The translations under genes were made by a program, and so were the position numbers. Positions 169-28,311 of a DNA stretch of 64,000 bases are shown one piece after another. The notes beneath the pieces were generated by a model. The model made no database searches. It saw only the letters and a program-made list of their open reading frames with translations, and had not been told where the DNA came from. The DNA is taken from contig JBBIPC010000006.1 of the NCBI GenBank assembly GCA_037443035.1, forward strand, positions 32,001 to 96,000, in the 5' to 3' direction. Positions within the stretch are counted from its first letter, which is position 1, and each line of letters opens with the position of its first letter. The stretch comes from Chthonomonadales bacterium. GTDB lineage: Bacteria; Armatimonadota; Chthonomonadetes; Chthonomonadales; CAJBBX01.

Positions 169-198
169 TTGACACGGCTTCCGGCCGGGCAGTATAAT
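169..198 (+). promoter_or_regulatory. sigma70-type promoter for the HNH leader transcript
   Basis: Exact consensus TTGACA (169-174), 18-nt spacer, TATAAT (193-198). Confidence 0.85.
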
Positions 199-204
199 CG
201 ATCA

Positions 205-431
205 AGCTATGGTAGGAGTACGAACGAGTAATCATTGCCTGAGTAAGGTACGAGCGTATGTCGGGCGGACGGATGCAGTAGTCCTGGCCTGCGCCGGCAT
301 GGCGGTGGCAGGTGCACGCAAGCTCAGAATGCTGGCGGATAGCTTCGAGCACGTGCATCTTCAACCTGACGCCTGGCCTGACTACGTTTGAACCCGCTCC
401 GCCGTTTGGTGTGAGCGGGTTCTATGTTTTT
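205..431 (+). promoter_or_regulatory. structured 5' leader / putative transcription attenuator (or small ncRNA)
   Basis: Lies between the promoter and a terminator. Long irregular rod closed by GTAGTC(278-283)/GACTAC(380-385). uORFs at 258-281 (MSGGRMQ) and 209-391. Alternative pairing of 264-272 with 394-403 competes with the terminator. Confidence 0.55.
390..431 (+). terminator. intrinsic terminator upstream of the HNH gene
   Basis: GAACCCGCTC(390-399)/GAGCGGGTTC(413-422), extended by CGCC/GGTG around a GTTT loop, followed by TATGTTTTT. Confidence 0.8.
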
Positions 432-475
432 CGGTTCCACGCAGCAAGCCTGATGCGGAAGGCAAAGAGCAGAGC

Positions 476-1000
476 ATGGATCAAGAAGTCCTTGTGCTGA
501 ACAGCGACTATGAACCGCTCAACGTGTGCAACACGAGGCGGGCGATCGTGCTGGTCATCTTGGGGAAGGCAGATGTATTGCACGCGCGCGATCGCATGAT
601 GACCCACATGAGCGGTACGTTCGCAGCGCCTTCCGTAGTCAAGCTGCGCCACCACGTGCGCCGGCCGCTGCCTGAGCTGAAGCTCTCCCGTCGGACCGTT
701 TTCGCTAGAGATAACTACACGTGCCAGTATTGCGGTTTGCAGACGCGTGAACTGACCATAGACCATGTCGTGCCGAGAAGGCTTGGAGGTCGGACGGCAT
801 GGGAGAACGTCGTGGCAGCGTGCCGCAAGTGCAACACGAGGAAGAGCGACAAACCGCTCGATCAGAGTGGTCTTCGGCTACGCAGGCAGCCGACACGGCC
901 ACACTATGTGCCGTACATCAGTCTTACGAAGTACCTCGCAGCGCGAAAGAACGCCGAATGGCGCGACTACCTGCCTCAGTTCGCCGACTTCCCTGACTGA
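476..1000 (+). CDS. HNH endonuclease (McrA-like, zinc-binding)
   Basis: RDNYTCQYCG...TIDHVVPRRLGGRTAWENVVAACRKCNTRK: CxxC, DH, N, CxxCN; N-terminal VLVLNxDYEPL motif. Confidence 0.92.
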   Translation: MDQEVLVLNSDYEPLNVCNTRRAIVLVILGKADVLHARDRMMTHMSGTFAAPSVVKLRHHVRRPLPELKLSRRTVFARDNYTCQYCGLQTRELTIDHVVPRRLGGRTAWENVVAACRKCNTRKSDKPLDQSGLRLRRQPTRPHYVPYISLTKYLAARKNAEWRDYLPQFADFPD

Positions 1001-1084
1001 GCACGCCCTGCTGCGTACGCCAATGATCCTCCTCGACGCACCTACAGTGCTGCATTCTCACGCATGGCTTCCAGGAACGGCGAC

Positions 1085-2434
1085 ATGACCTACGCCGAGG
1101 CCGTTCGATTCATGTCCCACCTTCGGCGCTTTGGCATGAAGCTCGGCAATGATCGCATGGTGGAACTCCTGCGGCGTGTCGGCAATCCGCACCACGCCTA
1201 CGGCATTGCCCACGTTACGGGGACGAAAGGCAAGGGGTCCACCACCGCCATGATTGCCGCCATCCTCCACGCACACGGATTCCGTGTGGGAGGGTACTAC
1301 TCGCCGTACGTCTACGATCTATGCGAGCGGGTCCAACTGAACGGGCAGAACATCGCACGTCGCGATTTCGCTAGGTTCGTTGCTCGCCTCGCGCCACACG
1401 TGGAGGAGATCAGCGCTGGTCCGCTCGGGTCGGTGACGGAGTTCGAGCTGAAGACTGCCTTGGGGTTCCTGTACTTCGCCGAGAAGCAAGTGGACTACGC
1501 TGTCGTGGAGGTCGGCATCGGTGGTCGGCTCGACGCGACCAATGTCGTTCATCCGCTAGTCAGTGTCATCACGAACGTCGGCCTGGATCATACCGACATT
1601 CTCGGTGATACCATTGCTGCGATTGCGTTCCAGAAGGCCGGGATCATCAAGCCAGGAGTACCAGTGATTACGGCAGCAGAAGATCCTGAGGCGTTGCAGG
1701 TCATCGAGAGAACGGCAGCGGAGCAGACCGCAGAGGTAGTGCGAGTTGTGAGGCAGGATGCATGGAATAGCCCTGCACAAGTTACCTGGGCGGGCGACCA
1801 CACGTGCTTCGACGTCAGAACACCCGACGCGACCTACGATGGCCTCGCTCTGCAACTGATCGGCAGCTACCAGTGTGTGAACGCCGCCTGCGCCATCGCG
1901 GCAGTGGAGGCTATGGCGGATCGTGGCGGCTTCGATGTTCATCCGGACGCAGTGCGGCTAGCGCTGAGCAAGGTGAGTCTGCCGGGGCGCTTCGCCGTGC
2001 TACGGGAACGACCGATGGTGGTTGCCGACGGTGCGCACAACGGTCTTGCGGCACGCGCCCTGGCTGAGGAACTGCGGCGGATGCGTTACGGACGGCTGGT
2101 CCTCGTGGTGGGGATGTTACGAGGTCATGAGCCAGATGCCTTCTTGAGAGAGCTGGCTCCTCTCGCGTCCATCGTGTACGCGACGCAGCCAAGTTGGCGT
2201 CGCGCGCTAGATGCTGGGAACGTCGCCGAATCGGCCAGACAGTACTGTGCCGATGTCCGCGTGGATTTCCCGCCGCGACAGGCTGCGAGGAAGGCCATCG
2301 CCGAGGCGGACGAAGAGGACCTGGTGTTGATCACAGGCTCCTTCTACACGGTGGGGGATGTGCCACCGCAATCGCTGAGCAGAGCTAGGTGTCGGACTTC
2401 TGCACGTGCTCCAGCTCGAGAGCGACTACGGTAG
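1085..2434 (+). CDS. folC: folylpolyglutamate synthase / dihydrofolate synthase
   Basis: HVTGTKGKGST P-loop, EVGIGGRLDATNV, DHTDILG, DGAHN, TGSFY. Start at 1085 chosen from the AGGA RBS (ORF track starts at 1064). Confidence 0.95.
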   Translation: MTYAEAVRFMSHLRRFGMKLGNDRMVELLRRVGNPHHAYGIAHVTGTKGKGSTTAMIAAILHAHGFRVGGYYSPYVYDLCERVQLNGQNIARRDFARFVARLAPHVEEISAGPLGSVTEFELKTALGFLYFAEKQVDYAVVEVGIGGRLDATNVVHPLVSVITNVGLDHTDILGDTIAAIAFQKAGIIKPGVPVITAAEDPEALQVIERTAAEQTAEVVRVVRQDAWNSPAQVTWAGDHTCFDVRTPDATYDGLALQLIGSYQCVNAACAIAAVEAMADRGGFDVHPDAVRLALSKVSLPGRFAVLRERPMVVADGAHNGLAARALAEELRRMRYGRLVLVVGMLRGHEPDAFLRELAPLASIVYATQPSWRRALDAGNVAESARQYCADVRVDFPPRQAARKAIAEADEEDLVLITGSFYTVGDVPPQSLSRARCRTSARAPARERLR

Positions 2435-5517: not shown

Positions 5518-7314
5518 CTAGCCGTACAAGGGTCCGAGGGTCGCGCAGGCCCGATAGTCGGCTCCTTGGGGATCCTGCGCTCCGAAGCGTGCCCAGACAG
5601 CCGGCCGGAAAACGCGCTCTTCCGGAACGTTATGCATGTCCACGGGGATCCGAAGGATAGACGCAAGAGAGATAAGGTCAGCGCCAATGTGTCCGTAGCT
5701 GATGGCGCCATGGTTGGCCCCCCAGTTGTTCATGACGCTGTACACATCTCGGAAGGGACCGCTGCCTGTCAGCCTAGGGGCGAACCACGTCGTGGGCCAT
5801 CCTGGGTCGGTTCGGTCTTGGAGGATCCGGTCTACCTTCTCGGGCAGTCCTACCGTGTATCCTTCTGCGATCTGCAGAACCGGTCCAAGCCCTTTGACGA
5901 GATTGATGCGCGCCATGGTACACGGCATGCCGCCCACGGTGGAGAATTGGGACGAGAAACCGCCTCCGCGGAAGTAGCCTACGTTAGCGGGGCACCACCT
6001 TGTCGCGTCAATGCATGCCTGAGCCTCTTCCGGTGTTATCTCCCACCAGCGCTTCATTGCAGGTTCGCCGTTGACGGTCTGGCGTCCAGATGCGTCCAGC
6101 GCCGAGGCGCCAGAGTTGATCAGATGGATGATGCCGTGCTCGGCGGCACCAGTGAGGCGGAACCCAGTCACGCGTTCGACCGCCTCGGGACTCCAGAACG
6201 TCCGCACATCCGAAAACATCTGGGCCGAACCTGTAAGGAGATGCATGAACAGCATCGTAACGCCGTTCAGCGAGTCGTTTTCCGTAGCCACGACATAAGG
6301 CTGACGAATGCCCGTCCAGTCGAACGATGAGCACAGGATCGCCTCGAGGAAGTCGCCGTTGGGCATGAAGTCCGTCCACTGGCGCTGGCCCTGGAAACCG
6401 CTAGCGATAGCATTGTGGCCCTGCGCCTCCTCAGGATAGCCCAGTTCTGCCAGTCGCGGATTGCCGACCATGAGGTCTCTCGCGATCAGGGCCATCTTGA
6501 CGCAGGTCTCCCAATCGCGATCCTTCTGCTCGCGAGAGCGCTGATTTGCCGGGGCGTTGTAGTCGGGTCCCTCTTTGCAGTTCTCCTTCACCCAGTCCAA
6601 CGCTACTGCGTATTCGTCCGGGTCGTAGATATGGAGTTCGAGACGCCGGAGAAACTCTGTCATGTCCACCGTCTCGTTCCGCATGCCGAGGTAGGACTGG
6701 AAGAAGTCCTGTTCCACGATGGATCCCGCGATACCCATGGACACGCCGCCCATGGCGAGATAAGCCGTTCCGCGCATGGTAGCTGCTGCCAACGCGGCTC
6801 GCGTGAACCGGAGAAGCTTCTCCTGCACGTCGGTGGGGATCGTGGTGTCGTCCGCATCTTGGACGTCTCTGCCATAGATGCCAAACGCGGGCAGACCTTT
6901 CTGAGCATGACCCGCGAGAACCGCTGCCAGATAGACAGCACCAGGACGTTCCGTACCGTTGAAGCCCCACACGGCCTTGGGGACGATGGGATCCATGTCC
7001 ATCGTCTCAGAGCCGTAGCACCAGCATGGGGTCACAGTAATGCTCACCCCGACGCCTTCTCGGGCGAACTTCTCGGCGCATGCGGCAGCTTCAGCCACGC
7101 CACCGATACAGGTGTCCGCCACGACGCATTTCACGGGGAGGCCGCAGGCGTGTCGCACGTTGGCCTCTAGGAATTCGGCCACGCGACGGGCCATCCCCAT
7201 GGTCTGCCCCTCCAGGGATTCGCGCACACCACCATGGCGACCGTCAATGGTTGGCCGTATGCCGATCTTCGGCAGGTTGGTGCGTAGTCTGTTGACAGGT
7301 GCGTTGACTTTCAT
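5518..7314 (-). CDS. fucI: L-fucose isomerase
   Basis: [68 protein letters not shown]. Confidence 0.97.
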
Positions 7315-28082: not shown

Positions 28083-28196
28083 ATGGATACTCGTGTCGCT
28101 CTTTTCCTCAGACTGAACAGCACCGTCTACAACATTGTGCACGCAATGCGCCCAACATGACTACTCCCTACGTCAAGGGACGCAGGCGCGTCACAA

Positions 28197-28226
28197 TTGA
28201 CACTGGCGTAAGCGTATGCGTATAAT
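28197..28226 (+). promoter_or_regulatory. sigma70 promoter of tRNA-Met
   Basis: TTGACA (28197-28202)-N18-TATAAT (28221-28226). Confidence 0.9.
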
Positions 28227-28235
28227 AGGATGCTC

Positions 28236-28311
28236 GGCGGGATAGCTCAGTGGTTAGAGCGAACGGCTCATAATCGTTAGGTCGAGGGTTCGAATCCCTC
28301 TCCCGCTACCA
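28236..28311 (+). tRNA. tRNA-Met(CAT), probably elongator
   Basis: 76-nt cloverleaf, GGCGGGA/TCCCGCT acceptor stem, CAT anticodon, GGTTCGAATCC T-arm, encoded CCA. No C1 mismatch and no three G-C anticodon-stem pairs, so not an initiator. Ile2 is not fully excluded. Confidence 0.93.

Follow-up and report, generated by a model that had tools for sequence, protein, structure and literature searches.

A conserved, probably translated leader and a terminator upstream of an IshB-like gene in Armatimonadota: a candidate ribosome-position attenuator

The 64,000-nucleotide (nt) stretch of a Chthonomonadales genome analysed here (assembly GCA_037443035.1, contig JBBIPC010000006.1, positions 32,001 to 96,000, forward strand; hereafter the window, whose coordinates are used throughout) begins with a gene for a predicted HNH nuclease that is preceded by a promoter, a 60-codon open reading frame (ORF) and an intrinsic terminator. 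The same unit recurs across the Armatimonadota; within it, a peptide motif under coding-type selection keeps a near-fixed distance from the terminator hairpin, and a recurrent alternative helix captures the 5' arm of that hairpin. We conclude that the leader is very probably a translation-coupled attenuator working through the 60-codon frame, whether by the logic proposed here or by one of the first two alternatives weighed below, taken together. The particular version that we favour, a ribosome-position attenuator in which pausing of the ribosome on the motif would shut off the nuclease, has in our judgement an even chance of being right, and both its direction and its signal are deduced. The features that carry the argument are as follows:

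169..198, plus strand: sigma70-type promoter, TTGACA (169-174) and TATAAT (193-198) separated by 18 nt; transcription would start near 205
209..391, plus strand: 60-codon leader ORF with a near-leaderless ATG, a further in-frame ATG at 299 and a TGA (389-391) that abuts the hairpin
301..319, plus strand: 5' arm of the antiterminator at the conserved position, 'RGS' codons in relatives and a degenerate AGA here; its partner is 386-403
317..364, plus strand: peptide motif RKLRMLADSFEHVHLQ (family RL(L/M)xD(S/G)FxHxH), a candidate site of ribosome pausing or arrest
390..431, plus strand: intrinsic terminator, hairpin 390-422 and tail 423-431
476..1000, plus strand: 174-residue PLMP and HNH protein with the IshB layout, PLMP fold at residues 3-63 and zinc HNH at residues 64-141

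The promoter, terminator and 60-codon ORF all lie well above chance expectation. The promoter matches the consensus at 12 of 12 bases; the 3.76-Mb genome has 16 such perfect sites in all, and 11 or 12 of these bases are retained in 46 of the 57 loci that represent the order (56 genomes, all of those with a full orthologue). The hairpin comprises 14 pairs with a stability of -26.2 kcal/mol (z -6.5; 0/200 shuffles equally stable), and its base is almost invariant in sequence among leaders; the tail, UAUGUUUUU, is interrupted. The hairpin accounts for the folding of 205-431 (z -4.0), whereas 205-385, with the terminator removed, folds like shuffles (z -0.94), and thus the intervening 'rod' described in the original prediction leaves no signal. 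A terminator is found at most 300 nt upstream of the orthologue in 53/57 loci of the order and in 58/74 of those from other classes, against a background further upstream of 6/56 and 12/49, respectively, and one lies within the nuclease gene in 5/57 loci of the order; nine hairpin anchors, plus two more, were placed by hand. The wider sample took in 75 loci of other classes, for which 160 genomes had a match, and 64 loci of other phyla; outside the phylum the frequency of terminators (10/63) is at the background level (10/60), two further sets gave 6/19 and 1/20, and no common leader emerged in the phyla searched. In one phylum of small genomes (L236-L255), the orthologue stands right behind a long same-strand gene, with a leader terminator in 1/20. 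A second promoter between hairpin and HNH gene occurs in just 1/57 loci of the order, and a folC-like gene follows in 6/56, which makes the nuclease the gene under control. The promoter, terminator, HNH gene, both ORFs and each pairing named in the original prediction were all recovered where it had placed them, and its general design holds: a conserved unit of promoter, leader ORF and terminator stands before the HNH gene, and an alternative helix captures the terminator 5' arm.

The gene product fits IshB in its domain layout, namely, PLMP and HNH in about 180 residues with no RuvC, and its nuclease role is predicted. Residues Asp96, His97, Asn111 and Asn120, together with four cysteines, are invariant in 66/66 members, and Pfam matches are to HNH and HNH_5. 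In the predicted model (predicted local distance difference test score of 89), the PLMP, the HNH and a short helical tail fill the 174 residues. Residues 3-63 superpose on the PLMP domains of HfmIscB (Z 6.4, root-mean-square deviation (rmsd) 1.4, 48 residues aligned), TbaIscB (Z 5.6) and DtIsrB (Z 4.9); over these matches, the rmsd is 1.4-2.9 and the Z-scores are middling, but the entire small domain is covered. Residues 64-141 match the HNH of Cas9 and IscB with a Z of 10.2. Additionally, there is an in-register profile match of the PLMP region to residues 497-530 of TbaIscB (conditional E 0.01), and the RRXRR profile detects 13/66 members at E up to 1. Full-length orthologues are present in 56/61 genomes of the order at 61-76% identity (two genomes have weak matches and three have none), and the closest named relatives belong to Chthonomonadales and other Armatimonadota. 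One match each was found in 180/201 genomes searched across the phylum; this single-copy occurrence argues against mobility, such as that of an element of the IS200/IS605 type. In the literature, IshB proteins are described as relatives of IscB and IsrB of about 180 residues comprising PLMP and HNH (PMC10734217, PMC11610941, PMC13284715), and an association with omega-RNA is stated for them (PMC11610941). The present protein is like IshB in its 174 residues, its PLMP and HNH, and its lack of RuvC; it is unlike IshB in that it is single-copy and not evidently mobile, and that the RNA upstream is a coding leader plus terminator and no omega-RNA. No functional study of IshB was found in the literature searched.

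Among the 57 loci of the order, the conserved frame is that of the 60-codon ORF, which the original prediction had mentioned in passing; as it noted, this ORF stops at the base of the terminator. When the frame is picked by open length alone, its His content is 13.4%; the other frames contain 2.8% and long ORFs of the genome 2.6%, and at least three His codons are seen in 39/57 leader frames versus 9/114 other frames. Moreover, the His frame is open from -160 in 53/57 loci (other frames 40/114), with an ATG at -200..-130 in 45/57 (other frames 7/114), negative positions being counted from the hairpin; two approaches to choosing the frame concur in 46/57 loci. Ala, at 8.5% versus 10.8%, is not enriched over the 26 codons counted. 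Within the motif, codons are exchanged synonymously (GAC in 28 and GAT in 12 for the Asp; CAC in 21 and CAT in 21, and CAC in 26 and CAT in 13, for the His positions), and the motif is, on this sequence evidence, under selection of the coding type. A hidden Markov model (HMM) of the motif built without this locus ranks 209-391 top in the genome (E 1e-4; the next hit is at 0.087). The motif here has two His only. No homologue of the 60-residue product was found among called proteins, and Atlas matches were below 0.9.

The distance from the Asp codon to the hairpin is -54..-82 in 36/40 loci, although the stops of those loci span -19..+130, and the motif is therefore tied to the hairpin rather than to the end of the peptide. 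The His codons peak at -54..-27. By contrast, the N-terminal half and the C-terminal end of the leader are unconserved, and the stop ranges from -19 to +617 over the loci. It is located at the hairpin base in 27 of the 57 loci, inside the hairpin in 15, beyond it in 13 and upstream of it in 2, such that 55/57 touch or pass the hairpin; as genome background, a stop falls within -10..+5 of the hairpin for 6/116 terminators that follow long frames, some shadow ORFs included. The motif opens, at 317-328 and in the aligned codons, with an R/K-X-R/K triplet, and ribosome occupancy of this site would cover the arm of the antiterminator; R/K-X-R/K is reported as a macrolide stalling motif (PMC12121999). 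Several loci depart from the common pattern. In L055-L057 (genus g15), the leader ORF and terminator are retained, and LLYxDLxRS stands about 107 nt before the hairpin in place of the His motif. One added base in L024 (G006:C346) splits the frame between RGSRRLRML and DSFHHHH and leaves the antiterminator perfect, which may be a frameshift or a sequencing error. In L047 (G049:C137), the 5' base of the hairpin is absent and the His-rich frame continues in frame into the HNH gene, either a natural fusion or an assembly error. L011 and L058 (G042) are two copies of leader and nuclease with the same protein and different leader stops, and may reflect contamination.

The best partner of the stop codon plus terminator 5' arm lies at -110..-71 in 31/55 loci, 14 of which are individually significant. 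This position corresponds to the 'RGS' codons, which pair with the stop plus CCCGC (GGGUCA/UGACCC, GGGUUC/GAACCC and GGGCUC/GAGCCC), and places the recurrent antiterminator about 45 nt 3' of the helix named in the original prediction. Duplexes with a locus's own partner score -9.8, compared with -8.7 for permuted partners (0/5000), with p-values of 0.004 for family f1 and 0.005 for family f3; control windows give 0.09 and 0.91. The wobble base of the Gly codon pairs with the base after the stop (stop+1) in 11/15 cases (G-C 6, U-A 4, C-G 1; permutation p 0.0006), and the compensatory changes amount to approximately three separate ones on the protein tree. Over 45 loci (12 near-duplicate or unalignable loci were excluded from this nascent-fold set), the mean pairing of the terminator 5' arm is 0.67. 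The consensus fold of 17 leaders consists of the terminator alone (8 pairs); Rfam has no match for the leader here, and 16 related loci gave tRNAs only. A third helix, formed by RGS with the His codons, was rejected (-10.6 versus -10.1 for swapped partners, better in 24/45), as was an identity with 6S RNA, the genome's 6S gene being on a different contig (G000:C8:53024-53204, minus strand). In the nascent-RNA model of this genome, a local pairing leads before the terminator prevails, which it does from RNA end 419 onward:

241..258, plus strand: local partner of the terminator 5' arm, leading in this genome only (about 0.3-0.6, RNAs ending at 400-415)

These observations suggest the following mechanism. 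The 60-codon frame would be translated, and RL(L/M)xD(S/G)FxHxH would pause the ribosome, through the nascent peptide and/or its His codons. A ribosome parked 27-54 nt upstream would then sit inside the loop of the antiterminator and leave the 5' arm free to build the terminator, keeping the nuclease off; read-through would follow when no ribosome arrives and the antiterminator forms, or when an unheld ribosome runs onto the hairpin. In Escherichia coli, termination is reported to escape suppression when the ribosome is more than 27 nt upstream, whereas at 5 nt the efficiency falls from about 90% to below 10% (PMC4824070). The motif sits just beyond this 27-nt reach and within the antiterminator loop, from which we infer that a paused ribosome permits termination. 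What the leader senses is most likely how translation is faring, with histidine supply as the next candidate.

A number of results weigh against this mechanism. The f1 control window D-66..-48 was also hit (p 0.01), and the stop-codon register, in which 62% of cells are paired versus 54% when swapped (24/27 base-class loci gap-free), was picked after the data had been seen and among kin that are not independent; a plain MAFFT alignment with a single fixed register gives the helix no advantage over shuffles (118/500). The antiterminator dominates the nascent fold in 15/45 loci, and in this genome it scores -5.8 for the core and -18.0 when extended, with an occupancy of about 0 in the nascent ensemble. 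As the full RNA folds wholly as the terminator (probability 1.0), a switch could operate only kinetically. In the equilibrium model, the 5' arm stays paired when the His codons are masked, and the steric exclusion invoked above is an assumption. With regard to the leader peptide, the motif HMM of the order detects no leader of another class at E <0.2, L041 and L055-L057 are without the motif, 4/57 leader frames are broken within 160 nt, and the Shine-Dalgarno (SD) sites at leader starts are mostly weak.

The direction of control is the point on which the nearest alternatives differ. The original prediction held that the nuclease would be expressed only when translation fails; this is uncertain, since the stop touches or passes the hairpin in 55/57 loci, where in E. 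coli a ribosome suppresses termination (PMC4824070), and full translation could likewise give read-through. On this basis, the leader might be a valve like those of pyrBI and pyrE with the opposite default, in which a ribosome at the leader stop blocks the hairpin and the gene is on in good translation and off when ribosomes lag at the His codons (histidine or metal shortage). We consider such a valve unlikely: the stops at, inside or beyond the hairpin (27, 15 and 13 of 57), the His cluster and the occlusion of terminators by ribosomes (PMC4824070) speak for it, but it leaves the compensated antiterminator unaccounted for, the target has no link to histidine, and conservation extends to R, L, D, S and F besides His, the leaders of other classes with a shorter LLDDSF-like pattern, which was written post hoc (6/74; 0 in antisense or reversed controls), having few His. 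Alternatively, a plain switch of the whiB7/wblC type could act on the 60-codon frame, any translation masking the partners of the 5' arm and an early block freeing one, with the peptide sequence incidental. All of the partners (209-229, 241-258, 264-272, 301-319 and 334-343) indeed lie within that frame, the mean pairing of 0.67 over 45 loci agrees with such competition, and the whiB7 mechanism as reported (PMC10274678, PMC11550727) is of this kind; nevertheless, we think it rather improbable, as amino-acid conservation at a fixed distance would be unexplained, and a ribosome at the stop would leave uncovered an antiterminator arm that is about 26 codons upstream.

Further from the favoured attenuator, the leader could be a separate gene for a small His-rich protein with its own terminator, the HNH gene living on constant leaky read-through. 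Coding conservation, a strong promoter and the interrupted U tail here are what one would expect of such a gene; we nonetheless hold it to be very unlikely, because the N-terminal half and C-terminal end are unconserved with stops from -19 to +617, and because the linkage of leader and HNH gene persists while other neighbours change. A role of the terminated transcript, about 225 nt long, as an omega-RNA-like partner for the protein is highly improbable: the PLMP of IsrB is reported to bind 3' hairpins of an RNA encoded directly upstream (PMC9581776) and the hairpin base is nearly invariant, but the 17-leader consensus contains the terminator only, 205-385 has no excess of structure, Rfam has no match, conservation is by codon and orthologues outside the phylum are without the leader. 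The version given in the original prediction is almost certainly wrong. It had a short upstream ORF (uORF) mask the antiterminating helix:

258..281, plus strand: MSGGRMQ uORF (TAAGG SD at 244-248) with helix 264-272:394-403; unconserved

Here GGCGGACGG (264-272) pairs with CCGCTCCGCC (394-403) at -14.8 kcal/mol, or -22.2 kcal/mol on adding 278-283:380-385, at a cost of just 2.1 kcal/mol relative to the free ensemble of 205-407, and codons and helix do coincide. However, the uORF is seen in 1/57 loci, this one alone, and not in the same-genus L002; any short out-of-frame uORF in this zone is present in 5/57 loci, and an SD-led ORF of 4-12 codons turns up in 8% of shuffles. The helix itself is at chance level, an equal duplex arising in 16% of 1000 shuffles of 205-379, and occupies at most 2% of the nascent ensemble (RNAs ending at 400-423). 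Folding with the uORF masked, a check that the original prediction had itself proposed, left the 5' arm paired elsewhere (0.56).

The leader would work like the whiB7/wblC and pyrBI attenuators and is a member of neither. In attenuators of the pyrBI type, the leader frame ends at the hairpin, within it or past it, as in 55/57 loci here, and RNA polymerase makes nucleotide-sensing pauses; the conserved peptide motif and the alternative helix set the present leader apart from them. Histidine attenuators combine a cluster of His codons in the leader with biosynthesis or transport genes downstream, and their antiterminator arm follows the cluster on its 3' side. The cluster is shared (13.4% His), but no biosynthetic or His transport gene lies downstream and the antiterminator arm precedes the cluster. 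Arrest peptides, TnaC and ErmDL among them, have conserved residues near the C-terminus of the leader peptide; conserved leader residues are common to both, whereas here the distance from motif to stop is not fixed. A leader ORF that ends at or runs through a terminator likewise underlies terminator occlusion in E. coli (PMC4824070). With whiB7/wblC of Actinomycetota (PMC10274678, PMC11550727, 10.1101/2025.10.10.681568), the leader has in common a long uORF and an intrinsic terminator before the regulated gene. Their antiterminator lies inside the uORF, which is Ala-rich, and they are induced by ribosome-targeting antibiotics or starvation. Here, a candidate antiterminator recurs across loci (dominant in 15/45, weak in this genome), the leader frame is rich in His and carries a conserved motif, the target is a nuclease-fold protein and the stop codon itself forms the 3' arm of the antiterminator. 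The leader is undescribed in the literature searched, which comprised few subscription papers; the present analysis adds the motif-hairpin geometry, an antiterminator with compensatory changes and the dismissal of the uORF.

The neighbouring genes are outside the conserved unit, the nearest being:

1064..2434, plus strand: folC-like Mur-ligase gene, neighbour of the nuclease

The original prediction placed it 84 nt downstream, which is so from the second ATG (1085), the distance from the first ATG being 63 nt, and suggested its co-regulation, which is not backed, as folC is the next gene in 6/56 loci of the order and 0/73 of the others. Divergent from the leader promoter and just outside the window is a minus-strand gene (G000:C6, about -1012..-8), which we take, by eye, to be tsaC/Sua5-like; it is kept in 1/52 loci. 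Both folC (6/56) and tsaC (1/52) were rejected as conserved partners. Elsewhere in the window, at 28196-28311, a second perfect sigma70 promoter drives a tRNA-Met (CAT) gene at 28236-28311, and the minus-strand gene at 5518-7314 encodes 598 residues that presumably, from resemblance by eye alone, represent an L-fucose isomerase.

The literature raises the possibility that IshB was an RNA-compatible forerunner from which IscB and Cas9 arose (PMC13284715). PLMP is reported to resemble the IF3 N-terminal domain and to contact, in the case of IsrB, the 3' hairpins and SD of the RNA (PMC9581776). Rice WSL9, an HNH protein tied to chloroplast ribosomes (PMC7354284), is a lead only. One speculative idea, which we regard as decidedly unlikely, is that IshB, the smallest member of the Cas9/IscB lineage, serves the translation machinery as a housekeeping RNase. 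Its IF3-N-like PLMP would dock on ribosomes or terminal hairpins, and its own leader would encode a new arrest peptide that reports stalled ribosomes in a feedback loop; if true, omega-RNA recognition would have started from the binding of PLMP to a leader hairpin of this kind. IshB here behaves like a core gene, single-copy and under a putative translated attenuator; this argues for a link with translation and not with transposition, and the attenuator suggests conditions in which to seek IshB expression and substrate. Moreover, the leader is a candidate new pause peptide of unusual geometry, with the stop codon within the antiterminator and the motif in its loop.
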